A stretch of DNA of 64,000 nt from Alphaproteobacteria bacterium (GCA_964291215.2 OZ219791.1:1632001-1696000); one strand, 5' to 3'. Counted from the first letter of the stretch, positions 9,124 to 43,278 are shown. Translations and numbers: made by a program. Notes: generated from the sequence alone by a model not told the origin.

Positions 9124-9434
9124 GATGGCGCGGTCGCGGGAGGCGGTGATGGAGGGTCCGGTGGCGCCGGGCGGGTACGACCCGGCAGGCTGCGGCATGG
9201 CCGTCGTCTGCTTCATCGTCGTCATCCTTCGAGCCAGGGGTTTCGGACGGGCGGAGAGTCTGCGGAGCGGGAGATTGCAGCCTTGGGCACTGTCAAGCTG
9301 AACCGGCGGGTGCGCCAGGCTAACTGGCAGAATGTCGCCGGGTGAAAGTCCCGGCAGGAAGAGAGGCTAACCACCACTTTCTCCGTGAACCATGCGTCGT
9401 GAGGCGTCAGGCAAAGCGTTGGGGAGCGGCAGGC

Positions 9435-10255
9435 GTGCAGCGAGTCTAGCTGCTGATCTTGCGGGTGAAAGTCCCGCAATTCTCAGTTTGGCGCCGTAGC
9501 ATTGGTTCAGGGGCGACCCTGGATCAGCGAGCTGGGACGTAGAAAGCCGTCGTGGGCTGGCTGGAACGCAGTGTCCAGCCGATCCGGTCAGCCAGGGCGG
9601 CGAGCAAACCGGAGGGCGAAAGCGAACGGGAAGCCCCGAAATTCCCCACCCACACGAAGCTGATTTGTGGGATAGGCGGCGAACGCCAAGGTTGCTACCC
9701 GATGGCCAGTGTCGATGCGGAAGAACTGAGGAACACGCATCGGGTTCCCCGGGGTACAGACGGCGGCAATTCGGGACAGATCAGCAGTGAAAGACCGGAA
9801 GGTGAGGAGGACAGACAGGATGAAGAGACCCGTCAAGGACCGCGTCTATAACCGGGAGACGGGAAAGGACGCGGAGTCCTCCTGACTGGCGGATGAGGTC
9901 GCCTAAGGGGCGGGACAACACAACCCGTCCCGAGCGAGGACCTCAGGGCTCAGGTAGCCTATGCGGCAGGTCAAGCCGGTACGCAGACCGACAGACTGCA
10001 AGGCCGAAGGACGGAGCAAACGCTCGGAGATGCCGTGGGTATGGTTGGGTCAGCCTTGACTATGGCGTGGGAAGGCTTCGCACCGAACTCCAAGTGGGTG
10101 CCTGATGCTTGAACCGGGAAAACCGGACGTACGGAATTTTAGGGGGGCTGCTGGAAACGTGGTCTATGGCGATTCTGCGAACCCGCCCGCAATCGAAAGA
10201 GCGGTGACGGATAAAGCCTTCGCCTAAGGATGCGCGCGCCAGCGGCCTACCCGAC
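9435..10255 (+). ncRNA. Inner ORF-less group II intron nested in domain I of the outer intron
   Basis: 5' GTGCAGCGAGTCTAGCTGC...GCGGGTGAAAGTCCCGC; 3' ACGTACGGAATTTTAGGGGGG...GGAAACG...GCGCGCCAGCGGCCTACCCGAC (domain V/VI-like, ends AC); no RT ORF inside. Confidence 0.78.
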
Positions 10256-10559
10256 GTGGGCCGGGCTATCGAGCTACGAGATTCAGGTCAAACCGGAGTG
10301 CCGAGGTCGTCCGCCAAGCCGAAGGCAACACCCTGCGAGCCGCGTTGGTGAGGCGAGCAGGTGCTCCGCGGGGTCCGAGAACCATGGCCGAAGCAGGGAC
10401 CCGGGAGGTCTTGCCCCACTGTCGTAGAGGGGTCGCAGAGGAAAGGAACTATTCCGTAACCCGATGATGAACGAGAAGTCGGATTCGGCCATGGTACCGT
10501 CGAAGGCGGCGAACAAGGGCTCTTCGGAGCCTGCGGAGTTGCTGGAGGGAAGGGCAATG

Positions 10560-11545
10560 CGGTTGACCCGCGCCGCACGCAGAAGCGGGGGTCACAGGCG
10601 GCGCATACGACAAGCTGCGAAGAGGAATCCGGAAGAGCGTCTTGTGACGTTGCTCCACCACGTGACGTTCTGCACGCTGCGTTTCACTCCTTGAGAAAGG
10701 ACGCGGCAGCGGGGGTGGACGAAGTTACGTGGCACGCGTACGCGGAAGGTGTGGAACTGCCTGCACGCCCGTGTGCACAGGGGCGGGCGCCCTTGTCGCG
10801 GCGGGTATACATACCCAAGGAGGGCAACGACCGCTTGCCTCGCTGGAGGACAAGATTCTGCAGCGGGCGGTGACGGACACGATTCTGGTACCGCGAGACG
10901 GAGTTCCTCGGGTTACGGTTTCCGGCCGGGGCGCACGATGCGCTCGATGCAGTCGGAGTGGAACGGCGGAAGGTCGACTGGATCGTTGACGCCCCTTCGA
11001 CAACCGCGACCACCTAGTCGCGATGCTCGAGAGACGGATCGGGGGCTCTGATCATCAAGTGACGCTGGCGTCATGGAGCGACACCGGTGTTGGTTCGCCG
11101 CAGGGCGCAGCCCCTGCCTGGCGAACGTTTACCTGGACTACGTGCGACTGGTTTCAGAACCATTGGCGCAAACGGATGACTGACACGATCATCGTGCGCT
11201 ATGCGGACGACCTTGTGTGCGGCTTTCAGTATCAGGGCGATGCGAAGCGCTGGGACCTCGGGGAGAGGTTGGCTCACTTGAACTGCACCCGGACAATCAT
11301 CGAGTTCGGTCGGTTTGCCGGAGCGAGCCGCCGGAAGCGGGGGCAAGACGTTCGACTTCCTCGGCATGACGCACTATTGCGAGCAAACGAGGAAGGGCAA
11401 GTTCAGGGTCGGCCGCAAACCATCCCGGAAACGGGCACCCTGCGGCGGATCAAGGAGGCATTGCGCAAGCTGTGGCACGACAACCGGCACAAGACGGCCA
11501 AGTGGCGAGTGATCAAGGGATGGCTCAACTACTACGCCGTTCCGG
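10560..11545 (+). pseudogene. ltrA: Group II intron reverse transcriptase/maturase, many frameshifts and deletions
   Basis: Fragments in three frames: TLLHHVT, AAAGVD, RRVYIPK, LEDKILQRAV, YGFRPGR, GSPQGA, IVRYADD, TFDFLGMTH, GWLNYYAVP. Confidence 0.9.
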
Positions 11546-11625
11546 GAATACGGAGAGCGGTGTCCGTATGATGCTCCGAAGGGCCGGGTTTCGTTTTGTC
11601 TCGGGACGGCCGGTCCACCCTAGCG

Positions 11626-14022
11626 CTACCATGTCCTGAAAAAGAGGGCTGGACATTGCCGATCGGGCGGTGTACGGTCCCTCGCCATGCGGACCCAATC
11701 GAACATTCTTCGGACGCTGCGCGGCGCGGAAGCGCGGTCCCGGGTGGCCGGGATCCTGTCGCGGGAGTCGTTTGCCAGCCGGCAGTCTCTGGGCCGCCGG
11801 GTGTGCGAGGAGTTTGCCTTTGTCGACGCCCTCGGCCGGTGGCAGGTTTCGGGATGCCTCAAGGCCCTGCGCACCCTGGCGGCGTCCTCGCCGGAGATCG
11901 TCCTGCCGCCGCCCCGGGTGCCGCCGCCGGACCGAACGCCGCGTCAGCTGGATGAGGCCGTTCCGGCGCCCGTCGGGGTGCCGGGGCGGGTGTCGGAGAT
12001 CGAAGGGCTGGAGGTGTTTCCGGTGACGACGGTGGTGCAGCGCACGGTGTGGAACACGCTGATCGCGCGCGAGCATCCGCACGGCCTGACGACCTTCGCG
12101 GGCCATCAGGTGCGCTATTTGGTGACCTCGGGACACGGAATCCTGGGCGCGGCCGGGTTCTCGGCCGCCGCCTTGCAGGTGCAGGCCCGGGACCGCTGGA
12201 TCGGGTGGAGTGCGCCGCAGCGCCGGGATCACCTCCACCGGGTGATCGGTCTCAGCCGCTTCCTGATCCGTCCGGCGGTCCGCTGTCCCCACCTCGCCAG
12301 CCAAGTGCTGGGCCGTCTGTTGCGACGGCTGCCCGCGGATTTCGAGGCCCGCTACGGCCTGCGGGTGTGGCTGGTGGAAAGCTATGCGGATGCGGGCGTG
12401 CCGGGCACCTGCCTGCGGGCTGCCAATTTCGTGTGCGTGGGCGAGACGAAGGGGCGGGGCCGCCAGGACCGGTATCATCGCCGGGAGAAGACCGGGAAGA
12501 CGGTCTGGATGTACCCGTTGCACCGGCGTTGGCGCCGGGATCTCGGGGTGGCCGAAGTGGAGCGATGGCCGTCGCTCGAGCCCGGCGAAGGTCTCGGTGC
12601 ACGGGAGTGGGCCGCGAACGAGCTGGGAGGAGCACCCTTGGGGGATCGGCGACGGGCGGCGCGACTGGTGAAGAGCGCTTCGCTGCTGGCGGAGTATCCG
12701 GGGCAGAAGATCCAGGCCCACCCGGACAGCAGCCGTACGGTCATCAGTGCCTTCTACCGGTTGATCGAGCAACCGGTGGACAGCGCCATCACGGTGGACA
12801 ACATCCTGGCGCCTCACCGGGAGCGTACCCTCCAGCGCATCCGGGGGCAGCGGACGGTGCTGGCGATCGAGGACGGGAGCGATCTGAACTTTGCGCGGCG
12901 TCCGGGGTGTGACGGTCTGCAGGTCATCGGCACGAACCAGACCCGTGCCTCGACCCTGCACGCCACGCTGGCGGTGACCGACACCGGCCTGCCCCTGGGG
13001 GTGCTGCGGTTGGGGTTCGACCCGAAGCATGCGAAGACCGTCGCCGCCGGGACGAAAAGCCGGCGATGGCTCCACGGATTCACGGATACCGTCGACGCCG
13101 TCCGGGAAGTCGGCGGCAAGACCCGCGTGATCATGGTCTGCGATCGGGAGGCGGATTTCTTCGAACTGTTCGATCTCCAGCGCCAGCACCCGCGGGTCGA
13201 GGTGCTGGTACGGGCCCGGCACGATCGGGTCCTGGGGCCCCACCGCCCGAAGCTGTTCGCTGCCATGCAAGCCGGCCCGTCCGACGATCAGATCGAGATC
13301 GAGATCGACGGCCTGACCGAACGCCGGAAATCGCGCGGGAAACCGGCCCGGCGCAAGCGTGTGGCCAACTGCGAACTCCGACATCGTCGCCTGACCCTGC
13401 CGTCGACCCTGGAGGGCAAGGATCCGGTGTCCGTCTCGACGGTCCATCTGGTCGAAACCCACCCGCCCGAGGGCGAGAATCCGGTGCAGTGGTTCCTGCT
13501 CACCACGCTCCCGGTGCGCACCGGGCCGCAAGCCGCCGAGGTGGTCGGCCACTATCTCCAGCGCTGGAAGATCGAGGATTTCTTCCGCGTCCTGAAATCC
13601 GGCTGCCAGGTGCAGTCCCTGCTGTTCCGCAAGGCCGAACGCCTACAACGGGTCACCGCCATCCATGCCGTGATCGCCTGGCGCATCATGGTCCTGACCC
13701 TGCTCGGACGACAGGTCCCGGACTGTGAACCCGCGCTGATGTTCACCGATCCGGAACTGGCCTTCCTCCGCGACTACGCGCGCGAGCAGGCCATGCCGGC
13801 TCCCGACACCCTCGGCGGCGCCGTGCGTCTGGTCGCCCATCTCGGAGGGTATCGGGACCGCAAGCACGACCCTGAACCCGGATACCAGATCATGTGGCAC
13901 GGCTCCAACCGGCTGAGCGGCGCCACCCTCGGTCATCGAATCGGCTTCCAGGCCGGCCAGCGGCAGGCCCTGGTCCGGGATCGGGCTCCCCTGGTTCAGC
14001 CATAATTGTCATGCCTCGGTAG
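11626..14022 (+). mobile_element. IS4-family element with DUF4338-fused transposase
   Basis: Imperfect IRs CTACCATGTCCTGAAAA / CTACCGAGGCATGACAA around one 772-aa ORF; both flanks are NNCTAGNN but not identical. Confidence 0.75.
11687..14005 (+). CDS. IS4 (IS50/Tn5-like) transposase with N-terminal DUF4338/DruA-like domain
   Basis: N-terminal RDRWIGW, SRFLI, LVESY, AANFVCVGETKGRGRQD; C-terminal LGDRR, AIEDGSDLNF, VCDREAD, YLQRWKIEDFFRVLKSG. Confidence 0.85.
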   Translation: MRTQSNILRTLRGAEARSRVAGILSRESFASRQSLGRRVCEEFAFVDALGRWQVSGCLKALRTLAASSPEIVLPPPRVPPPDRTPRQLDEAVPAPVGVPGRVSEIEGLEVFPVTTVVQRTVWNTLIAREHPHGLTTFAGHQVRYLVTSGHGILGAAGFSAAALQVQARDRWIGWSAPQRRDHLHRVIGLSRFLIRPAVRCPHLASQVLGRLLRRLPADFEARYGLRVWLVESYADAGVPGTCLRAANFVCVGETKGRGRQDRYHRREKTGKTVWMYPLHRRWRRDLGVAEVERWPSLEPGEGLGAREWAANELGGAPLGDRRRAARLVKSASLLAEYPGQKIQAHPDSSRTVISAFYRLIEQPVDSAITVDNILAPHRERTLQRIRGQRTVLAIEDGSDLNFARRPGCDGLQVIGTNQTRASTLHATLAVTDTGLPLGVLRLGFDPKHAKTVAAGTKSRRWLHGFTDTVDAVREVGGKTRVIMVCDREADFFELFDLQRQHPRVEVLVRARHDRVLGPHRPKLFAAMQAGPSDDQIEIEIDGLTERRKSRGKPARRKRVANCELRHRRLTLPSTLEGKDPVSVSTVHLVETHPPEGENPVQWFLLTTLPVRTGPQAAEVVGHYLQRWKIEDFFRVLKSGCQVQSLLFRKAERLQRVTAIHAVIAWRIMVLTLLGRQVPDCEPALMFTDPELAFLRDYAREQAMPAPDTLGGAVRLVAHLGGYRDRKHDPEPGYQIMWHGSNRLSGATLGHRIGFQAGQRQALVRDRAPLVQP

Positions 14023-14210
14023 GGCTAGTAGTCCACCGACATTGTATTGATGGTTTTTGGTGGGTAGTATTTCCGTGTCGGCGTTCGTTGGAATCCGGGC
14101 AGTGCCGATATCCACACGGGCAAGATGCCGAATAGGCAGGCAGCCCCATGCGCAGGTCCGGACAACGGGCATGTCCGCAGGTCTTCGGGGCAATGACAGG
14201 AGCGGCGCAT

Positions 14211-14607
14211 ATGGCCAACTCTCCTCAGGGCAGGAAGCTCTACCGGGTGACCCTTTCGGCGCAGGAGCGCCGGGATCTGAAGGCGATCGGGCATCGGGGG
14301 CGCCGGGGCCGCCTGGCACAGGTCCTGATGCTGAGGGGCGCTTGTCGATGCCGACATTGCGCAAGGGCTGGGCATCGGCACGGCGACGGTCGAGCGCTTG
14401 CGCAAGCGCTGCGTCCTGGAGGGACTGGAGGCCGCCCTCAGCCGCAAGGAGCAGGTGAACCGTCGGCCGAAACGGCTGGACGGGGCGATGGAGGCGAAGC
14501 TGGTCGCCCTGCTCGTCCCCGCCCGAGGGCTGTGGGCGCTGCTCGCCGGCCGTCTGGTGGAGATGGAGATCGTCGAGCGCATTTCGGAAGAGACGGTCAG
14601 GAATACG
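14211..14607 (+). pseudogene. IS630 transposase, N-terminal (HTH) half, frameshifted
   Basis: YRVTLSAQERRDL, RKRCVLEGLEAAL, LDGAMEAKLVAL, ISEETVRNT spread over several frames. Confidence 0.85.
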
Positions 14608-19841: not shown

Positions 19842-19860
19842 GGACGGACGGCGCTCGCCG

Positions 19861-20815: not shown

Positions 20816-22617
20816 CCGAAGTTCCGGAAAATTCCGGCTGAAATGCACGTCAAGTCATTGATGCAGCGTGGTTTTTCGGATTTTTCGTGCGTCAGAATGT
20901 ACCCATGTAATACGGTTTTGGGTGCTTGACATCCATGGATCTTGCGCCTATATGCAGTAGCCATGTATATCGAATCCGTCCCCAACCGCTCGTCCCCGCC
21001 CGCCATCCTGCTCCGCGAGTCCTAGCGCAAAGCCGGAGCAGTCAAGAAGCGCACCCTCGCCAACCTTTCCAAGCCCGCTCTCATCGAGGGATTGCGCATT
21101 CTGCTCAAGGGAGGAACCGCAGGTCTCGACGACGCCTCGTCCGCTCCCTGCCCCATGTGGCCGCGGTGCTGGGAACCCTGAAGAAACTGGGCCGGCGGAT
21201 CGACCCGAAGCCTTCTCCCGAGCGCGATCAGGTTCTCGCCATGATCGTGGCACGCATCCTCGAGCCCGCCTCGAAGCTGGCCAGGGGGATGGCCGAGGCC
21301 ACAGCGGTCAGCACTCTGGGCGAGCTCCTCGATGCGGAGATGGACGAGGACGCCCTCTACGGCGCCATGGATTGGCTCCTGGAACGTCAGGAGAGGATCG
21401 AGCGGTCCCTGGCGAAGCGGCACCTCGAAGAAGGCTGCCTGGTGCTGTATGACCTGACTTCCGTGTGGATGGAGGGGAGAGCGTGCCCCTTGGCCAGGCG
21501 AGGTCATTCCCGGGATGGCAAGAAGGGCAAGCTGCAGTCGGCCTTCTGTGCGACCGGGACGGGTGTCGGTGTTCCCCGGCAACACCCGGCGACGCTGTCC
21601 TCGCAGATCACCACGCTGCAGGAGCGGTTCTCCTTGGCGAAGGTGGTGCTGGTGGGGGATCGGGGGATGCTGACCGAGGCGCGCATCCGCGAGGAGGTGA
21701 AGCCTGCGGGCCAGCGCCTTGAGGGGCATCCGTTCCCTGGTGGAGGCCGGCGATGTCGAGATGTCGCTCTTCGACGAGAGGGACTTGGTGGAGATCACCA
21801 GCGATGCGTATCCCGGCGAGCGCCTCTGCCGCAACCCGCTGCTGGCCGAGGACCGGAAGCGCCAGGAACTGCTCGAGGCCACCGAGGCTCGCACCGATTG
21901 CCGCAGCGAGACCAGCGCCGGGCGCCGGGAAGATCGGGGAGCGGAAGGTCATCGGCAAGTACAAGATGGCGAAGCATTTCACGTGGTCCATCGACGACGA
22001 GGGGATCTTCACCTATGGGCGCGATGCGGCTGCCATCGCCGCCGAGGCCCAGCTCGACGGCCTCTACGTGATTCGCCTGCCGCAGAGCGAGCTCGACGGT
22101 CCCGGCACGGTGCGGACCTACAAGCGGTTGAGCTCCGTGGAACGGACCTTCCGCAGCCTCAAGACCGTGGACCTGAAGGTGCGCCCCGTCTACCACCGCC
22201 CCGAGTCCGCGCCCACGTCTTCCTGTGCATGCTCGCCTACTACGTCGAATGGCACATGCGCCAGAGACTGAAGTCCATGCTGTTCGACGACGAGGATGCC
22301 GAAGGCGCCCGGCGGCCGTCCGTCGTGGCGCCGGCAGAAGTCTCGGCGAGCGCCCGGGCCAAGGCGGCCACGAAAAGGACGCCCGGAGGGGGCACAGCTT
22401 CCGCACCCTCATCGGCGATCTTGCGACCATCACCCGCAACACCGTGGCACCCCGCCTTGCGGGCGCCGAACCCTTCCCGGTCACCACACGGCCCACGCCG
22501 CTCCAGAGAAGGGCTTTCAAGCTTCTGGGCGTGAAGCCATAGTGTACCCAGACCGCTGAAATGTATAGAATGTCATTTCTATCAGGCACTTACGTCTGAT
22601 CGGCTCTGGAACTTCAG
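20816..22617 (+). mobile_element. IS1634-family element, transposase pseudogene
   Basis: IRs CCGAAGTTCCGGA / CTGAAGTTCCAGA; 6-bp TSD CTTAGC; MYIESVPNR, LVLYDLTS, GHSRDGK, VGDRGM, LDGLYVIR, VERTFRSLK, RVRAHVFLCMLAYY in shifting frames. Confidence 0.9.
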
Positions 22618-22703
22618 CTTAGCGTGCACGCATCGTGCTGCGCCCGGGGACAGACCAATTCGGCAGCTCAACGTTTCGCTGTCGGCAGTGGGCAAATGGC
22701 GGC

Positions 22704-24284
22704 GTATCTACTCACCCCTAATTGGGTTCTGATTGGTCGTAGTGTTCGTTGATGATGTCTGCGGCTTTTCCGTCGAGGGCGATCTGGGTGGCGACGAGTG
22801 GGTTGTAGCCGAGTGCCGCCATGGAGGTGAGGTAGCTCGAGCCCTAGCACCATGCTTTTGCGTGGAGCATGGTGCGGAAGCACCCGGACACCTTGACCTT
22901 TGCCATCCTGATCTTCTGTTCTCCGGCATTGTTGGTGAAGCTGACGTTGGGGTCGTCTGTAAAGCGCAGGTTTTCGTGTTTCACGAGACGTTCGTGCAGG
23001 TTGTGCGCGTTTGCGTCCACGTTTTCCTTTCGGCGGCGGCGGCGGGATGTCGGGCAGTTCCCTGGCGCCCTGAGTGAGGATGGTGCGGTAGCGCTTGCGC
23101 ACGGCCCGGAGGTCGGCCTCGTTCAGGGTTTTGGATGCGCTCTTGTTGACCTTGTGGCAGACCTCGCGGAGCAGGCTCTTCATCAGTCGCGCGGTAGCCT
23201 CGACGACAAAGGTCAGTTCGCGCAGCAGGTGGCTGCCGCACAGCTGGTGGCTACACTGGCCCATGTACGAGGCCCAGGACGCCCTTGTAGCACGGGATGA
23301 TGCCGATCTCTTGCCCGCGCTTGCGGTGCGGGAACTTGCACGTCAGGGTCCCACGACATGGAGCCACTTGCTGTTGATCCGAAAGCCGGTCTCATCGACA
23401 TTGGGCGTTGCAGGAGGTGCGCCACGGCGGCCTCCTCCCATGACGCATCGTGAAAGCATAGCCGAGGCAGGTTGCCTCGGAGAGCTTGATGCCGGAGATC
23501 GCCTGCACGAACGCGACGGCACGGCGCAGGGACAGCATTTGGGCGACCAGCAGGTTGATGACGAGGGCTTGGATGCCGATGCCGTACTGCACGGGATGTT
23601 GTCGGGGAACCGGCCCCGGGCCTTGCACTTCGGGCATTCCTCGGCGCGGCGCTCGACGACCTCGAACACGATGTCGTAGAGGACGCGGCGCTCCCGATCG
23701 ACGGGGCCGTCGATGTCAGCGCCGCAGGCGTCGCAGGCCGCGACCGTCTCCTCGACGATAGTCTTGCGCAGGTTGTCGCCCATCTGCCGGTTTGGCTTCG
23801 GGCCCTTGCCGTTGCTCCCGGCACGCTCTCGTCCTTGTCCGTCTGTGACGGCGGCAGACCGGAGTTCCGGCTCGTGTGTGGTCTTCTCCAGAAGGACGAC
23901 GATGAGGATGTCGAGCAGGATGACGAAGACGCGGATGACGGCCTCTTTCGGCACCTTGCCGGCCGCACGCAGCGCCGCGGTCCGGGTCTTGGCCGCTTCG
24001 AACTCCTCGCGCGCCGCGTTGACCGTCGCCATCACCCGGCCTTGCGCTTCATCAGCGCGCCGCTTCCGAGATGCGTTTCCACATACAGATCATGCGGGGG
24101 CTGGAGCTCCGGAAGCAGCTGGCACGGCCCGCTCGTCGCCTTCGATCCAAAGTAGCCCACTGGCGGTCCCCGTCGTTCTCGATTACCACCACTAAACGAA
24201 TCGGCCTGCAGTGTCAAATCTCCACGAAAACCCGTTCGTTGCTCTACCCCGACATCAAGCCGGAACCAGGGGGTGAGCAGTTAC
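22704..24284 (-). mobile_element. IS66-family (single-ORF ISBst12-like) element, decayed, with truncated methyltransferase gene
   Basis: Ends GTAACTGCTCACCCC / GTATCTACTCACCCC; 8-bp TSD ATGGCGGC; VDETGFRIN, QLCGSHLLREL, VSFTNN remnants. Confidence 0.88.
24032..24160 (-). pseudogene. N-terminal fragment of DNA adenine methyltransferase
   Basis: GYFGSKATSG...PPHDLYVETHLGSGALMKRK, clearly homologous to the MTase starting at 30846; the rest is deleted. Confidence 0.85.
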
Positions 24285-25096
24285 ATGGCGGCGATGATTC
24301 CTGGAGCGTGGTCTTGAGGGGCTGCGAATTGCACCCGGGACGACCCCGCACCTATGGTAAGGTCGCGAAGCTGATCAACCGGGCCCTGCAGTAAAAGCCA
24401 TGCGGGTGCCTGGAGTGTGCGACGGATGGCCGAAGCCGTGTCGAAAAGTACCGTGCAGCGCTGGTTTGCCCTGTTCGGGATCAAGCCACACTCGAGCGAC
24501 ACCTTCAAGCTCTCCAGCGATCCGTTTTTCGTCGAGAAGGTTCGGCACGGGCCTGACCCTCCAGATCATGCAGTGGTCTTGTGCGTGGACGAGAAGAGCC
24601 AGGCGCTCCAGCCCACATTGCCCATGGGCTATGTCGAAGACTATACTCATGACTACGGAACCACGACATTGTTTGCTGCTCTGGACGTGGCGACGGGTGA
24701 TGCTCCAAGCGGCATCGACACTAGGAGTTTCTCGCCTTCCTGCGGCTGATTGACCGTGATCCGAGCTCGATATCCATCTTGTCCTGGACAACTACGCCAC
24801 CCACAAGCATCCCAAGGTCCGGTCGCCAAACGACCGCGTTACCATCTCCACTTCCACCTCCTGGCTCAGGAACGCTGGTTCGGTCTCATCAGCCATCAAG
24901 CGCGGGTCGTTCGACAGTGTTCCTCAACTCATCAGAACGATTGAACACTTCATCACACACCACAATAAATCCCCTTTCGTATGGGTCGCAACCGCAGACT
25001 CGATCTTCGACAAGCTTGAACGGTTATCTGCTCGTATTTGCGGGACACAACACTAGGCGGTGCGGCCGGCAACGGTTCAAACCAGGGAGCCCTGAC

Positions 25097-26056: not shown

Positions 26057-26068
26057 GAAATATCCGGT

Positions 26069-28197: not shown

Positions 28198-30845
28198 TAG
28201 ACGATCAGCCAGAACGGGAAGGTGTCGGGCAGAATGTTCGGCAGCCAGATCTTCAGATAAGAATGATGGAAGCTCAGGTGCATGATCCGCTCGTAGAATC
28301 CGACCAGGAACAACCAGCCGCCGGCCGCATACAGCAGAGCGACGCGCCGGGAATACCCTCCCCAACGAATGAGGTAGACGGCTATGAATATTGGAATAGC
28401 CAGTTTTTGACCGACCACGAGCATGATCAACAGCATCAGCGTCAAGTAGCCGAAGAACGCCGCCGACTTCGCCAGAACCGCCTGCTCGGAGCCTACGGCC
28501 ATCGCCCCGCCAAGGCCTCCGTTCATCGATGTCGCCGCCCGAAGATCCCGGGTATCGAAATAGAAGGTGAAGGCCGCGAATATCGCCCCCGGTATGGCGA
28601 TGGTAATGGGAAACGCCTGAACCGAATCCGGCCATTGCAGCGAGTGAAAACCCGCGCCCACGAAGATGACCAGCAATATCAGCGAAAAGGGCCAGGAAAT
28701 GATCGGGTTCCCTGCGCGGCCTTCGCCGGCATTGGGCTCGCTTCCCTCATCGTCGGAACGTTTTGCCTTGATGACGCCCCGCGCGGCAAAAATGATGGTG
28801 AGGACGATCAGCGCAAAAATGATGAGAACGATCGGCCGCTCAAGCCAACTAATGCCGTCGTAGGCGCGCATGCTGATCTGGAAGGAATTTTCCATTATGG
28901 AGCCGAGGATGAGGGCGAGGATGAGCGGGGGCCGCGGCCACCCGCCCTTCTTCATGGAGTAGCCCACGATCCCCATGATGATGCAGGTCACCCAGTCGCC
29001 GAGCGAGGAGCCCCCAAGCCACGCGCCCATGAAGACGAACAAGATCACGCCCGGGACGATCAGATAACTCGGGAGGAATGCGACCCGGGCGATCTGACGG
29101 CTCCAGACCATCAAGAGCGCGGTGGCCATGATATTGGCCACGACGATCATCCACACCATTCCAAAGGTCAGGTGCAGTTCGGAGGTCAGCATGTCCGGAC
29201 CGGGCTTCAGGCCCTGGATAAGTAGCGCCCCCAACAGGATGGCCGCACCCAGGCTCCCGGGGATTCCGAACGCCACGGTCGGAACCAATGAGCCCCCTTT
29301 GGTCGCGTTGTTGGCTGCTTCCGGCGCGATAACGCCGCGAATGTCGCCCTGGCCGAACTGCGATTTGTCTTTTGCGCTCTGAACCGCGTGACCGTACGCG
29401 ACCCAGTCGACAATCGCCGCGCCCAGGCCCGGCAACATGCCCACATAGGTCCCGATCGCCGCGCACCGCGTCGCAAGCCACCAATGACGAAAAGCGTCCT
29501 TGATGCCCTCGATCATGCCGCCGCCGGCGGTCTGTTCCTTGGGAACGCGGGAGATGGAGATATTGCGGGTCGCCAGCTCCATGAGTTCGGGAATCGCGAA
29601 GAGCCCCAGAACCACGGGAATGAGAGGCAAATTGTCGATGAGGTAGTCGGTGCCGAAATAGAAACGCGGAATGGCTACCGTCTCGGCATACCCGATTGTC
29701 GACATCAACAACTCGAGCGCCGCGACCGCAAGGCCCTTCATGATCGATCCGCCGCTAAGGGAACCGACCATCGCGAGGCCGAGAACGTCCAGCATGAAGA
29801 GCTCCGGAGACCCGAACGCGAGGATGATGGGCAGGATGAGCGGCAGCGATGCCGCGAGGATCAAGGCGCTGAATACCCCGCCGAACGCGGAAACGGTAAA
29901 GGCGGTGCCGAATGTCCGCGAGGCATGCCCTTTCTGGGCCAGTGGGTAACCATCCAATATCGTCGCCTGGGAGGCGACGGTGCCGGGAATTCCCAGCATC
30001 ACCGATGCGATGGTGTCACTGGTTGTGGTGACGGCGAACATCCCCAACAAAAGAGCGAAAGCCGGCACCGGATCCATGCCGAAGGTGAACGGCAACAGGA
30101 GAACCAGCCCGATGATGCCGTCGAGACCCGGAATGGCGCCAAGCCCAATCCCGATGAAAACGCCGAGAAACAGGAAGCCAATGGACGGCCACTCGAATAC
30201 CTAGTGTTATGTCAGCAATGATATGTCGTACATTTGGTGCTAGACTGTCCGTCCATTCGGGATGGAGGTCGGAGTATGAAACGCTACGTGGTGACCCTGG
30301 ACGAGGCGGAACGGGCAGAACTTTCGGAGATCACGACCAAGGGCTCGCACCTGTCGCAAAAGGTAATCAACGCCCTGATCCTGCTTAACTGCGACGAGGG
30401 CGCGTTCAATGAATGCCAGATGACCGGGAAGGTCATTGCTGAGATTCTGCGCATCAGCATGCGCAAAGTAGACCGAGTGAAGAAGCGTTTCGTTGAAGAG
30501 GGGCTGGAGGCGGCATTGGGTGGCCGGCAAGGACGCCGTCCTACCTATATGCGAAAAGCCGACGGCGTCTTCGAGGCGCGCTTGGTGGCCCTGAGTTGTG
30601 GTGAACCGCCTGAGGGTTACGCGCAATGGTCGTTGCGGCTGCTGGCCGACCGCGTTGTCGAGCTTGGTTACATTGATACCGTGTCACACGAGACGGTGCG
30701 GCGTGTTCTAAAAAAAACGTAACTACCCAGGTACCCTGCCAAGTGTGAGAGCTTGCTGATTTTGTTCGCCGTGTCGCTGCTCTCGGCCTTGACTGCATAG
30801 GCGCGCGCGCCTATGGGTTGCCCTCTCGCATGGGAGGAGCGGCTG

Positions 30846-32835
30846 GTGGGGTATTTCGGATCGAAGGCGACGACGGGTCTGAGCCAGGCGCTGATTGCGC
30901 TGATGCCGCCGCACTCTGTCTATATCGAGAGTCACCTGGGGGGCGGTGCGCTGATGAAGCGCAAGCCTGCTGCCGTGCGCTCGATCGGGATCGACCTCGA
31001 TGAGCGGGCGCTTGAGGCCTTTGGCTGCGACTACCCGGTGGAGTTGGTGCATGGCTGCGCCCACTCCTTTCTGGCGTCGTTTGCGTTTCTGGGCCCGGAG
31101 CTGGTCTACAGCGATCCGCCCTATCTGCAGATTACGCAACCTGATGTCTGGAAATTGTCGTGAAGCTCTCAGTCATCGAGCTGTTCCCATTTGATGTATG
31201 CCTTGGTTTCGGTTTCCCATTTTTCGTCGATGAGGATCGCGGTTGAGAGGCGCTCCAACGAGGCGAGGTTCGGAAAGACCCTGACTTTGGAGGTGCGCCG
31301 CTTGAGCTCTTGCTGGATCGGTCGCTCGATGCCGTTCGAGGTTCGCATACGCTTGTGGTGAGAATCGGGCAAGGTGAAGACAGCGAGCCCCTCGGGCGCA
31401 TTCTTTTCCAGCCAGTCTGCGAAGCCTGGATGCTTGTCGCGATAGCTGGCCACGAGGGCGCCCAGTTCAGCCTCGGCGGTTTGGAGTGAGGAGGCGTGGC
31501 TCCGAGCTGTTTTCCAATACGTTTCCTGATGTCGTTGTTCGGTGCGTGCTGCACGGCGTTTTGCGCCAGGTGGAACTGGCAGCGCTGCCACGTCGCCGCG
31601 CCCAGCACCGCGCGTCGTGCCGCTTTCAACCCGGCATGGTCATCCGAGACGATGAAGATCGTACCATGCAGGCCACGGGCTAACAAGCTTTCCAGGAAGG
31701 CTCTCCAATGGACCTCGGCCTCGGAGAGCGCCACAGAGAGCCCCAGAACGTGCCTGCAGCCCCTATTCCGATGGCCGAGAGCACTGCAACATCGCGCACA
31801 ACGCCGTCATGGCGGGCTTTTTCATAGCGCGCATCCAGGATCAGGTATTTCATCAGCCCAAGGGGCCGGTTGCGCCAGGCGGTGAGTTCTTCGTCGAGCA
31901 ACCTGGTGGCCCGGCTGACCTGAGAAGAGGACAGGCTTTCGATCCCGAACTCGCGCATTACATCTTCGGCCTGCCGGGTGGAAACACCCTTGATGTACAT
32001 CTCGGCTACGGCCACGGCGCGAGAAGATCGCTGGCCGCGTTCAAGCGACTGGGGATAGAACGGATCGTCCCCGTGACCGGCCGTCTTTGGCACCTGAACG
32101 GCAACAGGGGGGTGTCGATCCGTTTGGGCTTGTAGCCGTTGGCATAGCCCTGTCGCTCCGGCGTCCGTTCGTAGTGGCCCGCTTTCAAGTACTGCTCGCG
32201 CTCGATTTGCATCGCAAGCTCGAAGAGCTGGCCAAAGACCCGCCCCAGATCCGTTGCTCCGTTTGCGATCAGATGTTCCAAAACAGTCCCGATCGTCGTA
32301 GTGTGTCGCAGGTCCATTCGCTTCCTCCATGAAGGTTTACAGCTCCATGGGATAGCACGATGGCGCCGCGTTTCACTGGGGGTCTAGCCCCCCAGTGAAA
32401 CGCCTCAAAGCGCAAACCTCGGACAAATTTCCAGACATCAAGTTACAGTACCATCTGCACGCGACCCGGCGTTCGTCGCAGCGCTACCGCTTCGAGTATG
32501 CGGAGGCCGACCACGTCGCGCTGCTTGAGCTGCTCAAGGGTCTGCCCTGCCAGGTGATGGTCTCGGGCCACCCGTCTGCGCTCTATGACGACCTGCTGTC
32601 GGGCTGGCGCCGGCTGGCGCTGCAGGTGACGACCCAGGCCCGGGTGCGGACCGAGGTGGTGTGGTTCAACTTCGCGCCCGACCGGGTGCACTGGGCGCGC
32701 TTCGCCGGCCGGAACTTCACCGACCGCCAGCGCATCAAGCGCAAGGCGGCCAACTGGGGCCGGCTCTACGAGGCCATGCCGGCGGGCGAACGCCTGGCGG
32801 TGCTGGCCGCGATCATGGCCGGCGAGGTCCCGTGA
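30846..32835 (+). pseudogene. Dam/D12-class N6-adenine DNA methyltransferase (219 aa when rejoined), interrupted by IS256
   Basis: GGAGGAG RBS, GTG start, GYFGSK, ESHLGGGA (motif I), YSDPPY (motif IV); removing 31130-32459 restores the frame DPPYL-HATRRS...MVSGHPSALY...TEVVWFNF. Confidence 0.9.
31130..32452 (-). mobile_element. IS256-family element, transposase pseudogene
   Basis: ~30-bp imperfect IRs (AACYTGATGTCTGGAAATT core), 7-bp TSD ATCTGCA; EMYIKGVSTR, YLILDARYEK, VSDDHAGL, WQRCQFH, RTSNGIER, VFPN over at least four frame segments. Confidence 0.92.
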
Positions 32836-32902
32836 CGGTGGCGCGAGGACCTCGCCGGCCACGACGAGGCTTTTGCGTGCCTGCAGGACCTTTTCACCCC
32901 AC

Positions 32903-34309
32903 AATGCCTGGCGATGACGGTCATCAAAGCCATCCGGGCCAGGGGCTGCTGCGCCTGAGCGCGGCGCTGGTCAGGGAGAACGACGCGCTGGAGCGGGAGA
33001 ACGCCCACTTGCGCGAGCGGATTGCCGAACTCGAGCGCAGTGCCGCGCTCGACAGCACCACCAGCTCCCGGTCGCCGGCCAGCGACGGTCTGAAGAAGAA
33101 GAGCGGACCCCAGCGCACCCGGAGCGGCACGTCCGACAGGCGGCGGCCAGCCACAAGGGAACCACTCTGGAGCGGACCGCGACGCCCGACCACGTCGTCG
33201 ATCATGATCCCTGCGCCTGTGCGGGCTGCGGCGCGCCGCTGTCGGCCGCTGAGCGTCACCGAGCCCCCGTCTGCCGGCAGGTCTTCGATGTGCCGCAGCC
33301 CCTTGAGGTCACCGAGCACCGCTGCCTCTGTGCCGCCTGCGGCACCGTGACGACAGCCGTCTTCCCGAACGGCGCCCCGGTCCAGTACGGGCCGCGTATC
33401 ACCGCGTGGGGGACCTACCTGCTGCACGCGCAGTTCATTCCGGAGAAGCGCGTCGCCGAAGTCATGAGCGACCTCTTCGCGGTCAGGCTCTCAACCGCCA
33501 CCATCGCCGCCATGGGCAGACGCACCGCCCGGCGCTTCGAGGGCTTCCTCGACCGTGTCGGCGAGATCATCCGCACCGCGGCCCCGGTCAAACACCTCGA
33601 CGAGACCGGCATCCGCATCGCCGCCCGGACCCAATGGCTCCACGTACTGTGCACCCCGTTGCTGACCATCCTGCGCATCGCCGCCGGGCGCAGCCACATC
33701 GACGAGAAGCTCAACGGCATCGTCATCCATGACGACTACGCCACCTACTTCGCTCTCCAAGGCGTGCGCCACGGGGCCTGCAATGCCCATCACCTGCGCG
33801 AACTCCAAGCCCTGATCGAGATCGAGAACTGGGCAGCCACCACGCACCGGCTCCTCAGCCGTGCCAACAGAGCCGCCCGCTTCGCCCGCAAGAATGACCG
33901 CGACCTGCCCGCTTCACTGGTGGCCCGCATCTCCCGAGCCTGGGACCGCATCCTTGAGCAGGCCATCGCCTCTCACGAAGAGATGGCGCCCCTCCAGAGC
34001 GGAAAGCACGGACGACAAAAGCGCCGCATCGGTCACAACCTCGCCCTCCGGCTCCAGAAATACAAGGAGGGCTGCCTGCGCTTCCTCACCGACCCGAGAA
34101 CCCCCTTCTCGAACAACCAGGCCGAGCGCGACCTCCGCATGGGCAAGCTGCGCCAGAAAATCTCGGGCGGCTTCCGATCAATGCAAGGCGCCCGCGACTT
34201 CGCCAGCCTGCGTTCCGTCATCGCAACAGCCCGAAAGCAACGCTGGAATGTCCTCGAAACCCTGGCGCATCCCGATCCCATGCAGCTGATCCCGAGACTG
34301 CGCCTCTGA
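32903..34309 (+). pseudogene. IS66 transposase, frameshifted 5' part and in-frame deletions
   Basis: LDSTTSSRSPASD, VQYGPRI, HLDETG, ACNAHHLREL, PFSNNQAERDLR, KISGGFRS. Confidence 0.9.
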
Positions 34310-35936
34310 AATCCCCCGCCGCTCGCCTCCGCGTCCGCGGCAGCAGACCGGAAGATTCAGTCCATAACCCGTGGCTGATCGCCGGAAGCAGACCTGGGCA
34401 GTTACAAAAAAACTGCCTCAAGCCATGGCAGCGGGTTGGGTGGGTGATTCCTCCTCAAGGGAACGCCGACTTCGCCGCAGCGAAGGTGCTCGATGTCTAT
34501 CGCCGCCCCTATGATGCCGCCTTCCCCGTGGTCTGCATGGACGAAACGCCCCGACCGGCGAGACACGGCAACCGATCGCCATGGCGCCGGGACGGGCGTA
34601 ACGACTACGAGTATCGACGTTGCGGTACCTGCAACGTCTTCACGGAACCCCTGGCCGGCAAGCGCATGACCAAGGTAACCGAGCGCAAGATCGATTGGGC
34701 GCAGTTCCTGGCCGACATCGCCGGGCGCTACCAGGACGCCACCACCATCACCCTGGTGATGGACAACCTCAACACTCACCGGCCCGGCGCCTTCTATGAG
34801 GCCTACCCGCCGGACGAGGCCAAGGCCCTGTGGGACCGCTTCGAGTTCGTCTACACTCCCAAGCACGGCAGTTGGCTGAACGTGGTCGAACTCAACGTCA
34901 TGATCCGCCAGTGCCTGAACCGCCGCATCGACTGCATCGAGGTGCTACGCCGGGAAGTTGCCGCCTGGCAGGCGACCGCATCCAGGCCAAGGTGGATTGG
35001 CAGTTCACCACCGACGATGCCCGCGTGAAACTCAAACGCCTTTATCCGACATTTGACGAATGACAAGACACTAGCTTAGCCCCAGTAAGAATGCCTCAAG
35101 CATGTTGCGCTCCGCCCCCGTCAACCTAGGCCGCAACATGCCGGAGCCGGCCGAACCGGAACACTGCGGAGACGCGTGAATCCGAGTTCCGGTCAGTACC
35201 AATCGGCTTGCGACGATCCGCATCCGAAAACCGTGGGATGGAAAACCCACCGTTTTCACAATACTGGGCAATACGGATCATGATCAGGACCATTCTGTTG
35301 TCGCGATCGGCGGCGGACAACCGTGTCAGAGTGGCCGTTCTTGAAGTTGGTGGCACCGTCTCAAGGTCGGAACCGGCATATCGACAACGAAATCCGCCCC
35401 CGAATGGACCTCCAGATCTGCCTACAACGCCCCCTCGTCGGACGGAACCGTACAAAAGAAGAGCCTTGGGATCATGATCGCAATGCCCGATTTGCAACCA
35501 CGGTCAGGACTCTTGGCCGGACTAACGGTTCTTGAAACCCGGCGGCATCAGTGCCCGGTCGCCAAACCACCAGACGGTCGCCGTCGAAGCGGAGATGAAT
35601 ACGTCAAGAAACTGGTCCACGGATCGCGGGCCAACACCTATACCCTGGTTTTCTACAACGCCGCGCCGGTCGTCTGGGTCAAGCGCGCCTAGGTCCCGGC
35701 CGCCGAACGGCGCCTGGCTCTCCACGGCCGCCGGGACGTGAAATCCTCGCGGCGGCAATTCGCGCGGTCGGGCATCGGGTTCTGCCTGGAGGTTCTGCGG
35801 CCGGCTCTCCGCGCCGGTGTTTCGGACCGGCGCCGCCTCGCGGAGCGCCGGCTCCTCGGTCATTTCGCGGACCTCTCGGCCTACGTTCGGCTGACTAGCT
35901 TTTGAGCCGCGTCCCCTCTCCCCCTTCTTCAGGGGG

Positions 35937-40670: not shown

Positions 40671-40804
40671 GAATCGTTTTCCCGGCTGAACTGTTTGGCT
40701 TCCATCGGTTCCGTTTGGCGGTCTTCAAAAACGGATCACGTTCATTTTTGTATTTGGGTCGGTCTTTGTCGAATGCCCAATGAGCATGGGCGGGGCAACA
40801 AATT

Positions 40805-41617: not shown

Positions 41618-41621
41618 TTGC

Positions 41622-42005
41622 TTATTGAATCGCCTCGGATTTTCGGACCTCGTTGATCATCGAGGTCCGCACGAGCAATTCCCGCGATTTCCCGGCGTCT
41701 TCGGCAACCGCCCTCAACTCATCCTGCCGCCGCTTTCGGACGGCCGGGTCCTTCTCCTCAAGATTCTTCTTGTTCCGGATCGTCTGCGCCTGGACATATT
41801 CGACCGCGATGGGCCGGCGCTGGCGGTCATACCGGTCGAGGAGATCGTCGCTCTCTCCTCCGCGGATGATGCGGACCAGATTGTTGGCGAGGTTGATGCC
41901 GTCATGCAACCCACCGTTCATCCCCATTCCGCCGAGCGGGTTGTTGACGTGCGCCGCATCGCCGGCAAGCAGAATACGTCCCTTCCGATAGGTCTCCGCG
42001 ACCCG
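41622..42005 (-). pseudogene. C-terminal fragment of a second FAD-dependent monooxygenase
   Basis: RVAETYRKGRILLAGDAAHVNNPLGGMGMNGGLHD; cut off at the IS630 junction. Confidence 0.85.
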
Positions 42006-42638
42006 CTAAAAAAGAGATCAAGCCGTGGCTGAAGCAGTACTGGTGCATTCCACCGCACCGGAGCGCACAGTTCGTGGCGGCGGACATGCTTGACATTTGT
42101 CAGCGGGACTTTGCCGGGAACGAGGTGCTGAGACCAGCCGGCAGCAGACGAAGCCCCCCCCCCCCCGGTCAGCCGGAGGTGGTCGACCATGAATATGAGC
42201 GCAACGGCCAACCTTTTCCTGGCCTTTACGCCCAACGAGAACTGGCGCACGGTGAAAGTCACCGACCGCTGCGGGACCGGGCGCACTTCATCCGGGAGCT
42301 TGCCGACGACCATTTCCCCGACAGGAAGATCGTGCTGGACAATCTGAACACGCACAGTCCCGCATCACTGTATGAAGCCTTCGAGCCCGAGGAGGCGGGT
42401 GCGAAAGCGGTTCGAGTTTCGCTACATGCCGAAGCACGGAAGCTGGCTCAACATGGCCGAGATCGGTGCGCTGTCGCGGCAATGCCTTCGGCGACGCATT
42501 CCCGACCGTGACACCATGCGACGGGAGACGGCGGCGTGGGTGGAACGGCGCAATGCGGCCGATGTCACTGTCGACTGGCGTTTCACGACGAAGGATGCCC
42601 GGACGAAACTGAAGTCTCTATATCCGTCAATCCAATAA
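42006..42638 (+). pseudogene. IS630 transposase, C-terminal (DDE) half, frameshifted
   Basis: IKPWLKQYWCIP, DHEYERNG, VLDNLNTH, PKHGSWLNMAE, WRFTTKDARTKLKSLYP. Confidence 0.88.
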
Positions 42639-42659
42639 TTCCAGACTGCTAGGGCCGAC

Positions 42660-43278
42660 ACAGAGCGGCAGGGGGCGTTGGTGGCGGACTTCGAGGCGAG
42701 GGTGACGTCGATGCTCAGTTTCAAGGCGCTGGCGGGCCCGATCGAAATCTGGTTCCAGGACGAAGCGCGCGTCGGCCAAAAAGGGATGACGACGCGCGTC
42801 TGGGCGCATGGGAGGCAACGTCCGCGCATCGTGCGCGACTATCACTATGGCTATCTGTTCGGCGCCACCTGTGCATAGCGCGGCGTCGCCCATGTGGCGA
42901 ACAGGGCGAACTCGGCGGCGATGAACGAGCATCTGGCGGCGGTCGGCGCGGCCGTGGCGCCGGGTGCGCACGACGTGATCATACTGGACGGGGCAGGCTG
43001 GCATCGCTCGGGCGACCTTCTCGTGCCCCCCAACCTGACGCTCCTACATCTGCCGCCATACAGTCTGGAACTCAGTCCCATGGAGCAGATCGTCCTGGTC
43101 CTGAAATCGAACCGCTTCGCCAACCGTGTGTTCAAGGATGTCGCCGCCCTGAGGGAAGCCTGCGGGACGGCATGGCAATGGCTCATCGAGCAACCCGACA
43201 TCATCACCAAAACAACCCGACGAAGCTGAGCCATCGCGCCACAGTGACGACCCTCACGACTCAATGCATAGGTCTATA
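42660..43278 (+). pseudogene. IS630-family transposase remnant (different subfamily)
   Basis: IWFQDEARVGQKG, ILDGAGWH, LPPYSLELSPME; internal stop; boundaries approximate. Confidence 0.82.

Follow-up and report, generated by a model that had tools for sequence, protein, structure and literature searches.

The window analysed here is a 64,000-nucleotide stretch of the genome of an uncultured alphaproteobacterium (G000, 99.3% complete), a genome of which about 35% is repeated DNA. The window carries an island of mobile elements that interrupt one another and single-copy genes (Table 1). A sequence-only reading had proposed that these elements are selectively broken by many deletions of a few to tens of bp, as the scars of a RIP-like defence in which multicopy DNA is cut and end-joined.

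Table 1. Features of the island with their positions in the window, the basis of their assignment and the segments lost
Feature	Position	Strand	Basis or remark	Losses
mutS, intact (mismatch repair present)	6361..9123	+	adjoins the island	
Group II intron(s) with RT remnant	9433..11548	+	Rfam RF02005 at 10212-10383; RVT_1 on least-deleted family member	16 segments (5-14 nt) vs near-intact copy in the same genome, by frameshift-aware alignment
IS4-type transposase, N-terminal DruA-like domain	11620..14028	+	open 772-aa frame 11687-14005; low copy	not riddled
IS630, 5' half (56-copy family)	14022..14607	+	3' half at 42008-42652	16 of 4-13 bp across the two halves
IS1634-like element (22-copy family)	20839..22621	+	name from the sequence-only reading; homolog via DDE_Tnp_1 search	20 of 5-15 nt vs intact G267 homolog (89% aa)
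IS66 of largest family (162 near-full copies)	22704..24284	-	GTA..TAC ends, 8-bp target duplication	25 segments vs family reference: 24 of 5-14 bp, one of 74 bp
IS630 fragment, 3 copies today	24285..25030	+	carries both example sites of the sequence-only reading; run contig gap-free	15 segments in 745 bp vs intact G002 homolog (72% aa)
Near-intact IS630 (9-copy diverged family)	27030..28200	+	open frame 27194-28186	two (9 and 10 bp) vs family reference
tctA, split by IS630	28197..30200	-	single-copy control	2001 nt without frameshift
IS630 (37-copy family)	30201..35077	+	two parts, 30201-30710 and 34414-35077	7 (5-7 nt) vs metagenome homologs; two of these absent from 37/37 copies
Young IS66 with passenger adenine-methyltransferase-like gene	30719..34405	+	30719-31122 plus 32453-34405; 12-13 copies, ~99.7% identical	transposase intact; no polymorphic 5-7-bp deletion
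IS256 (84-copy family)	31123..32452	-	inside the methyltransferase	5 (6, 6, 7, 7, 7) vs family reference
Single-copy IS630 remnant	42666..43278	+		two 6-nt losses; weak, homologs just 41-45% alike

Comparison with longer homologs bore out the proposed damage for the intron reverse transcriptase, the IS1634-like element, the IS66 at 22704-24284 and the IS630 copies at 24285-25030, 14022/42008 and 30201-35077. It did not do so for the IS66 that carries the methyltransferase (32453-34405) or for the IS630 at 27030-28200, which are intact or nearly so, nor for the IS4-type element, whose single open frame makes this low-copy element a counter-example; the IS4 remnant at 35961-36779 has homologs just 32% alike. 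The IS256 is broken as described, but it is the least deleted of the 84 copies of its family (median 17 losses); re-adding its missing segments yields a single frame against the 421-aa intact IS256 transposase. The peptide contrasts between IS630 27194-28186 and 24417-24749, offered as direct proof, are present in the translations, but the pair is only about 38% alike, and closer copies were used for the direct test. Against a longer genomic paralog, the element at 24285-25030 lacks 10 segments of 5-13 bp, among them the site of the suggested CAG-ATC-CAG to CAG collapse. The nesting order of tctA, then IS630, then IS66-MTase, then IS256 was corroborated by target duplications and by run contigs that read across the empty sites (joints 30710-34406 and 31122-32453). 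As had been stated, no frameshift was found in tctA or in the methyltransferase 5' piece (30719-31122), and the broken monooxygenase (40700-42003) is likewise frameshift-free.

That the deletions are an assembly or polishing artefact of repeats, a refutation foreseen by the sequence-only reading, is scarcely credible. Run contigs at single-copy depth matched the window with zero differences over 19000-20681, 25027-27288 and 28093-30228 and carried the example deletions gap-free, both being spanned by one 294-bp contig. In three runs of one study (runs X1 and X16, which hold relatives or small parts only, were left out), contigs hold short as well as long alleles, the latter as 6-7-base insertions relative to the window; on the side of an artefact, such contigs do not phase the copy-specific combinations in high-copy elements. 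The breakpoint motif, the pure-loss polarity and the alleles missing from all copies, described below, are unexpected of polishing, and the signature is absent from the closed IS-rich assemblies G267, G003 and G004.

Size, load and origin of the deletions

Building of repeat families was halted at about 26% of the genome masked. Deletions removed 11.6% of the reference length over 697 copies, and every long high-copy family analysed was eroded by one sharply sized lesion, of 5-7 bp rather than the broad range first suggested. Sites shared by at least two copies amounted to 498 (112 of 5 bp, 239 of 6 bp and 147 of 7 bp), with single endpoints in 414 and overlapping endpoint variants in 84; site and motif counts cover families other than the young IS66, both MITEs and one 6-copy family. 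Judged against outgroup proteins, the polarity is one of loss. No difference was observed between in-frame 6-bp sites and frameshifting 5- and 7-bp sites (mean frequency 0.51 vs 0.46 and 0.54), and coding-strand bias was absent (69 vs 83).

The selectivity claimed for multicopy DNA was upheld. The load of 5-7-bp deletions was ~6-19 per kb in IS families, 4.7 in a 487-bp family and close to zero in MITEs and in the young IS66 family, versus 0.6 per kb in single-copy spacers. From two-copy to >40-copy repeats, the number of 5-7-bp indels per substitution took the values 0.020, 0.035, 0.043, 0.067, 0.069, 0.118 and 0.271 (at most 90 pairs sampled per bin), and 1-3-bp indels stayed flat at 1-2.3 per kb over the same range. 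Ordinary neutral decay of pseudogenes, with power-law sizes and an equal rate in single-copy and multicopy DNA, does not describe these data. MITEs of 189-200 bp and the terminal 50 bp of elements were spared; a homology-length test on broken copies gave no monotonic trend.

As for the origin of the lesions, IS copies showed 12 clean singleton deletions per 995 singleton SNPs (0.012), a value with a known downward bias from the exclusion of sites already hit, and one that covers copies within 5% of the reference in families other than four diverged ones. Single-copy spacers showed 19 deletions of 5-7 bp in 31.7 kb for ~1970 lineage substitutions (~0.01 each), taken as half of the 3939 counted. 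Since new deletions are about equally frequent in both, it looks as if spread, rather than cutting, is what favours repeats. Thus the RIP-like proposal stands in its outcome, which is like that of a repeat-dependent eraser, and fails in that no rise of new deletions was detected in repeats, on 12 events. Spacer deletions of 5, 6, 7 and 8 bp (8, 5, 6 and 9 cases) formed no sharp 5-7 peak; a comparison of single-copy DNA over 310 kb found 40 segments of 5-7 bp missing from G000 and 3 from its relative G001.

Sharing of deletions among copies

Separate cutting and end-joining of each copy, as the sequence-only reading had it, is not supported: the shared sites are identical deletions at other loci, which it had named as grounds for its own refutation. 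The cause that it suggested for such sharing, movement in trans of already decayed elements whose deletions are inherited down a family tree, is very unlikely. Three near-identical copies with 6-7 losses do lie at unrelated loci, and the window IS256 probably arrived already carrying some of its losses. However, nearly every copy is a unique mosaic, with distinct deletion patterns in 162/162 copies of one IS66 family and in 83/84, 56/56, 57/58 and 52/52 copies of others; the copies that transposed recently are the least deleted, and all four combinations occur in 63-82% of deletion-SNP pairs. The r2 between deletions and SNPs was 0.17 for pairs no more than 10 bp apart and 0.06-0.09 for those separated by over 40 bp.

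The same allele is thus found at non-allelic loci in combinations that are not tree-like, as in nonallelic gene conversion. In one family, the flanking 8-bp duplications still match in 80 of the 114 copies scored, so that exchange is mostly non-reciprocal. SNP diversity of deleted relative to intact alleles was 0.40 at 1-3 bp, 0.61-0.79 at 4-30 bp and ~0.9 beyond, a recovery over 30 bp of the kind left by co-conversion tracts in templated transfer.

Intermediate frequencies (0.2-0.8) were reached by 255/569 deletions of 5-7 bp versus 13/155 of 1-3 bp, frequencies above 0.8 being excluded from the count, as the reference build is biased towards 4-14 bp in that class. A folded minor frequency of at least 0.2 was observed for 152/446 deletions versus 254/2202 SNPs, and 14/41 non-composite 8-11-bp deletions exceeded 0.2. 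These spectra, which are allele frequencies of a single assembly, together with the alleles missing from all copies, suggest that transfer is biased towards the deletion.

Breakpoint sequence and microhomology

A first motif search was confounded by codon periodicity and was replaced by local searches, which revealed a weak preference at one breakpoint, 5'-S/R-Y-C-S in G000 and c/ATC-S in the relative G002 (break at the slash), the G002 motif being one-sided (44/147 vs 26.6% expected). In G000 the match rose with deletion frequency, from 66/107 singletons to 109/128 deletions above 0.6, where about half would be expected. The motif bears what we take to be a likeness to RuvC cut sites; the presumed DarT motif, TNTC, does not fit it. 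No RuvC cut-site consensus is given in the sections of PMC9228767 at hand. Microhomology of at least 2 bp was in excess in G000 (243/519 sites vs 130 expected) and not in G002. Events of 5 bp had the form N-Y-N-R-N in 28/39 cases (25.5% expected), reminiscent of the YWR at the centre of TnsB target duplications as presented in part of PMC10201428.

This likeness and the lineage-wide excess of deletions in single-copy DNA would fit a process with no directional bias, in which the lineage makes many 5-7-bp deletions, for instance through staggered transposase-like cuts, and unbiased conversion and drift spread them. We consider it improbable: unbiased conversion would give an SNP-like spectrum and the same per-SNP ratio at any copy number, from which the data differ, and the one-sidedness of the G002 motif also speaks against it. 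A search for the Mu transposase C-terminus found no match, its control being silent too.

Distribution among genomes

Among the genomes compared (G001, G002, G003, G004, G030 and G267), the pattern is patchy within one genus, being present in G000 and G002, and absent from G003, from G004 and from the single-copy DNA of G001. In the G002 sample, the ratio in the highest-copy bin (0.036) was below those of the middle bins (0.11-0.13). The IS-rich G267, with at least 139 transposase matches, lacks the signature: its copy pairs, totalling 251 kb and differing by 62 substitutions per kb, showed 82 gaps of 5-7 bp, with 4 clean distinct events. G030 has 75 IS256 matches with open frames; the six copies compared are young (1.4 substitutions per kb).

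Candidate enzymes and pathways

The sequence-only reading had called for genome-wide searches for Ku/LigD, Argonaute and IS-matching CRISPR spacers, and none of these was found. NucS (PF01939), Ku, Piwi (PF02171, one Pfam profile as query, zero matches) and ATP-dependent ligase had no match in G000, where control queries for Ku and ligase matched. Two CRISPR arrays are present (96 and 17 repeats), and 0 of 117 extracted spacers, 111 of them from these two true arrays, match the genome beyond chance hits of 18-25 nt, apart from one non-CRISPR repeat unit. TnpB gave one sub-threshold fragment in G000, and AEP-TOTE, a primase-polymerase family that we take to be linked to IEE, gave just a 35-position fragment.

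RuvC and MutS were rejected as discriminating enzymes, being present in 5/5 genomes of the genus. Reverse transcriptases were detected in G000, G001 and G002, and so was DarT (with one stop in G001 and partial in G002). A hydrolase-like gene paired with an E2-E1-JAB-patatin gene, which among 61 relatives occurs just in the two genomes G000 and G002, was rejected because G267 has a closely similar operon without the signature. The first gene of the pair was assigned to the metallo-beta-lactamase fold by eye and from weak PADLOC hits with no Pfam match; the candidate had been chosen post hoc from 197 shared non-syntenic genes in a comparison covering 2.0 of 6.1 Mb of G002 and 0.4 of 5.0 Mb of G001.

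Of the resident IS elements, just a 641-bp TG..CA element has a target duplication whose length mirrors the deletions (5 bp at 3/7 copies), in a survey that mislocated the ends of many families. Mismatch-centred cutting received no support from 5-6-bp deletions, which showed no SNP excess at their centre; that for 7 bp was slight, on 17-30 sites.

A proposed mechanism and its alternatives

Altogether, the reading that we favour, with a probability of about 0.6, is that of a lineage-specific class of 5-7-bp deletions amplified by deletion-biased, short-patch gene conversion. The deletions likely originate at low frequency throughout the genome of the lineage, and short-patch conversion likely copies them one-way from repeat to repeat, with the consequence that erosion falls on multicopy elements and hardly touches single-copy DNA. 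On pairing of two copies, the intact one would form a bulge of 5-7 nt, a loop just too large for MutS-type repair, and a putative nuclease with a preference for R-(T or C)-C would excise the loop or nick the intact allele, followed by repair on the shorter copy. Each new deletion would then spread through its family, and the supply of deletions would scale with copy number. Against escape from MutS, neither the drop at 8 bp nor the lack of a 5-7 peak in spacers is explained by it. The three-copy IS630 with its 20 losses per kb and the low ratio of the highest-copy bin in G002 also speak against this reading. Pairing would need ~50-100 bp of flanking homology, sparing element ends and the 190-200-bp MITEs; sparing of the ends may instead result from selection on terminal repeats.

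Repeats might also be the target of a directed defence, in which a nuclease able to sense homology cleaves multicopy DNA at sites that it favours, and a constant repair outcome recreates identical 5-7-bp deletions independently in many copies. We regard this as unlikely, although it would account for the dependence on copy number, the overlapping variants at 84/498 sites, the microhomology excess in G000 and the occurrence of many deletions together with either allele of a SNP that lies 4-10 bp away (~0.6 of pairs); a motif that is strongest at high-frequency sites also fits repeated independent cutting. Repeat-triggered origin keeps some probability, since the singleton rate comes from 12 events and does not count sites hit before, maybe the best targets. 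Nevertheless, that rate matches the one in single-copy DNA, the co-transfer gradient indicates template copying, and the young 12-copy IS66 has 0 deletions among 21 distinct substitutions, which is a weak test. The enzyme searches, the spacers without a genome match and the lack of a microhomology excess in G002 weigh against it as well.

A stronger version of the preferred conversion model is tentative: a dedicated loop-excising nuclease might cut 5-7-nt loops at R-T-C sites and force deletions onto all homologous copies, with species-specific versions in G000 and G002. Just as tentative is the suggestion that such a self-propagating drive does in bacteria what RIP does in fungi, and that almost all high-copy transposon families have been disabled by it.

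Comparison with known systems

In fungi, RIP ruins repeats above a minimum length by new C-to-T changes in each repeat and spares single-copy DNA; here, in contrast, the lesions are deletions that seem to be copied and that originate no more often in repeats than elsewhere. We found in the open-access literature no description of the present pattern in bacteria, nor of a general homology-sensing bacterial process that ruins repeated DNA as RIP does. There is a likeness to the known deletion-biased gene conversion between paralogs, in which deletions pass between copies more often than insertions and neutral repeats shrink, and which in primates is more biased for longer indels. Unlike it, the process described here operates in bacteria and concerns just a 5-7-bp class, which has a breakpoint motif. 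Within a single genus it was detected in some species but not in the rest, and it has removed about a ninth of each element. Chromosomal curing by transformation is said to involve a recombination asymmetry toward the shorter allele.

Single-copy bacterial pseudogenes also accumulate an excess of small deletions, including those of 6 nt, with microhomology at many sites and no Ku/LigD; their sizes follow a power law with peaks at 3, 6, 9 and 12, as far as the available sections of PMC6054270 go, whereas here lengths of 5 and 7 bp are abundant, those of 3 bp are uncommon and different loci have alleles in common. According to portions of PMC2504288, bacterial mismatch repair handles loops of up to ~4 nt efficiently, larger loops are handled outside it by proteins not yet identified, and these portions mention for that handling neither a 5-7-nt limit nor a preferred sequence. 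A one-way remover of 5-7-nt heteroduplex loops, if found, would fill this gap, and the patchiness within the genus lets the responsible gene be sought by comparison. If spread is indeed faster with more copies, the expansion of IS elements would be held in check by a feedback of its own making. This would be a restraint on bacterial mobile DNA that has not been described before, and it would bear on the way in which symbiont genomes laden with IS elements cease to expand and become smaller.

Gene conversion among IS copies was reportedly described in Wolbachia by Cordaux in 2009. Wolbachia shares with G000 dead IS copies that persist in a symbiont genome and exchange sequence; their decay, in the parts of PMC3205602 that were available, consists of ordinary substitutions and deletions with no size-locked driven class. 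The bacterial protein IEE, linked to IS loss and microhomology joining in sections of PMC9943667, removes whole elements, unlike the 5-7-bp losses observed here.

Mobile elements of the window

Frameshift-aware alignment against independent proteins showed that mobile elements of the window have undergone losses, with no gains of similar size. The sequence-only reading had described the named elements as broken by many short deletions, and these deletions are present; however, an IS4-type element, a type that it called broken, was found intact or nearly so, as were the young IS66 carrying a methyltransferase gene (IS66-MTase) and one IS630 copy. The tctA gene and the methyltransferase piece, put forward as controls free of frameshifts, were confirmed as such by frameshift-aware alignment, and a broken monooxygenase is also without frameshift. 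It has to be noted that tctA alone is a weak control, because a 2-kb gene would be expected to gather about one event even if it had been dead for a long time. The proposed nesting order (tctA > IS630 > IS66-MTase > IS256) was borne out by target duplications and by empty-site joints. The IS256 of the window has recently moved and is among the least-deleted copies, recently moved copies being in general the least deleted. In contigs built from run reads, the example deletions were present without gaps, and long and short alleles were both found at other sites, an observation on alleles rather than on the phase of each copy. An assembly artefact appears extremely improbable as the source of the deletions.

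Features of the window and of the two contigs (C1, C2) of its genome
Feature	Position	Losses or state	Remarks
mutS	6361-9123	intact	
IS4-type element	11620-14028	intact or nearly so	
IS4-type transposase	11687-14005		fused N-terminal DruA-like domain (PF14236); paralogs 65-69% identical
Split IS630, halves in same orientation	14022-14607 and 42008-42652		27.4 kb apart
Split IS630 of a 37-copy family	30201-30710 and 34414-35077	7 losses	against five metagenome homologs; two of the 7 absent from all 37 copies
IS630	24285-25030	15 losses in 745 bp	against intact homolog of relative G002
IS630 fragment in run X14	24566-24654	about 16 more bases missing than in window	
IS630	27030-28200	intact or nearly so	
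IS66-MTase (L016, L017, L019)	30719-34405	intact or nearly so	passenger adenine-methyltransferase-like gene
641-bp element	52685-53320		TG..CA ends, internal repeats, 5-bp duplications in 3 of 7 copies; overlaps Toprim-like fragment
IS1634-like element		20 losses	against intact homolog of distant genome G267 (89% aa)
Intron RT		16 losses	frameshift-aware alignment
Operon (L215, L298)	C1:416136-420789		hydrolase-like gene and E2-E1-JAB-patatin fusion
CRISPR locus	C1:574247-596276		96-repeat array adjoining 599-aa Cas1-containing frame
CRISPR locus	C2:2063981-2069571		17-repeat array adjoining cas1 and 1046-aa Cas9-like frame (by eye)

A 5-7-bp class of deletions in repeats

The genome of the window (G000; 6.15 Mb, two contigs, 99.3% complete, permuted tmRNA) has relatives labelled Alphaproteobacteria or Rhodospirillaceae, and the runs containing it are sponge and marine metagenomes plus three runs from one host organism. 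About 36% of it matches itself elsewhere. References were built for 21 repeat families, all near-full copies were aligned, and substitutions and indels were scored. The 697 copies held 15,718 events of 4-14 bp, which removed 11.6% of reference length. Shared deletions of 1, 2, 3 and 4 bp numbered 49, 17, 18 and 6, and those of 5, 6, 7, 8 and 9 bp numbered 89, 159, 85, 25 and 9; pseudogene indels are described in PMC6054270 as usually power-law in size, with peaks at 3n. The IS66-MTase was the sole high-identity family without the deletions.

Breakpoint positions are non-random. Lost segments started with GTC (20 of 136 vs 5.2 expected), ATC (18 vs 5.0) or GCC (18 vs 7.8) in excess, the motif being found on either strand with a log-likelihood of 148 (15-21 with shuffled sites), and microhomology of at least 2 bp was enriched (243/519 vs 130 expected). 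The erosion process is real and sharply defined, and apparently undescribed: searches of an open-access library gave no bacterial description.

Spread of the deletions among copies

At least two copies have in common each of 498 5-7-bp sites. Already decayed elements moving in trans would also leave shared deletions, a very improbable explanation here; almost no two copies of a family show the same set of deletions, and linkage falls off within 10-40 bp. Target duplications were still paired in 80 of the 114 scored copies, indicating that exchange is mostly non-reciprocal. SNP diversity of deleted relative to intact alleles was 0.40 at 1-3 bp, where alignment effects may contribute, 0.61-0.79 at 4-30 bp and about 0.9 at greater distances, a gradient that the copying of deletions together with short tracts would produce.

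Frequencies of 0.2-0.8 were observed for 255 of 569 5-7-bp deletions vs 13 of 155 1-3-bp deletions; such middling-to-high frequencies are typical of the former and not of SNPs, and at 49 sites 90% or more of the copies had the deletion. Two-copy repeats had 0.020 5-7-bp indels per substitution, and the ratio rose with copy number to reach 0.271 in repeats of more than 40 copies. Hardly any deletions lay in the two MITE families (189-200 bp; 45 and 106 copies) or within 50 bp of either end of long elements. The spread of 5-7-bp deletions appears directional, and unbiased conversion is quite improbable. The process acts like the deletion-biased nonallelic conversion described in flies and primates (PMC3280953) and shows three of the four features tested for it. 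The outcome also resembles RIP, but raised mutation in repeats, by which RIP is defined, was not seen here.

Origin of the deletions

In single-copy DNA compared with the relative G001 (7% diverged, 310 kb), 5-7-bp segments were missing 40 times from G000 and 3 times from G001, counts taken without outgroup polarisation. Across 31.7 kb of spacers, G000 lacked 19 such segments, or about 0.01 for each lineage substitution. The comparison of intact single-copy genes (L035-L054) revealed 14 in-frame 6-bp segments missing in G000 and one in G001, indicating that proteins, too, lose residues to the process, two at a time.

The sequence-only reading had proposed that multicopy or foreign DNA is cut and then end-joined. 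About 0.6 of deletions were present on both alleles of SNPs just 4-10 bp away, so that either most transfers are extremely short or some events are recurrent, the latter as repeated cutting would predict. In IS copies, 12 clean singleton deletions stood against 995 singleton SNPs, a ratio equal to that of spacers; events were few, and sites hit earlier were left out. This comparison, the key test between targeted cutting and one-way copying, favours the latter, and targeted cutting is unlikely; the origin of the deletions does not look targeted to repeats.

Neither Ku, ligase D, NucS nor Piwi had a match in G000, and its two CRISPR arrays held no IS-matching and no self-targeting spacers. The only gene pair with a matching distribution (G000 and G002) was ruled out by G267. 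This pair, the hydrolase-like/E2-E1-JAB-patatin operon, has a closely similar counterpart in G267, although that genome is distant, and is probably a mobile defence module.

Proposed mechanism

We favour, with a probability of about 0.6, a two-step mechanism that joins a lineage-wide source of 5-7-bp deletions to one-way copying between paired repeats. The source, with its R-T/C-C preference, is seen as a pattern; a putative enzyme would generate the deletions. In the second step they would be copied one-way between paired repeats, in the simplest form by removal of a 5-7-nt bulge on the intact strand, and one enzyme may perform both. Such a loop is just above the size that bacterial mismatch repair is described as handling well (PMC2504288), and mutS is intact. 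A dedicated new enzyme system behind the erosion is possible, if doubtful. The drop in deletion number at 8 bp, the heavy load on an IS630 with 3 copies and, in G002, the reduced ratio of the highest-copy bin lie outside the reach of this mechanism.

Occurrence in other genomes

Repeats of G002 (2.0 of 6.1 Mb) showed 242, 300 and 68 deletions of 5, 6 and 7 bp. These are shared in mosaic fashion, occur at 0-8 per kb across six families, and have the start motif c|ATC and no microhomology excess. The 5-7-bp class was not found in IS630 of the relatives G003 (6 copies) and G004 (4 copies), 1-5% diverged, and one IS66 pair of G004 (85% identical) had gaps of 6, 7 and 8 bp. In the IS-rich G267, the indel spectrum was dominated by 1 bp. 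Presence in G000 and G002 and absence from G267 indicate a lineage-specific trait rather than one that follows from IS load in general. In G030, a genome of the same order, at least 75 IS256 matches were counted; almost all have open frames and are near-identical, and this set is a very recent burst.

Further features of the window

The flanking IS630 halves place the whole metabolic and IS island inside one IS630. Run X13 carried a variant of the IS4-type transposase, 2-6% different, at about 9x chromosome depth. The passenger methyltransferase-like gene shows a DPPY motif (by eye) and a weak D12-class Pfam match, and an IS66 of the same type is present in G004. The extra bases missing in run X14 indicate that the IS630 fragment still varies between hosts or copies.
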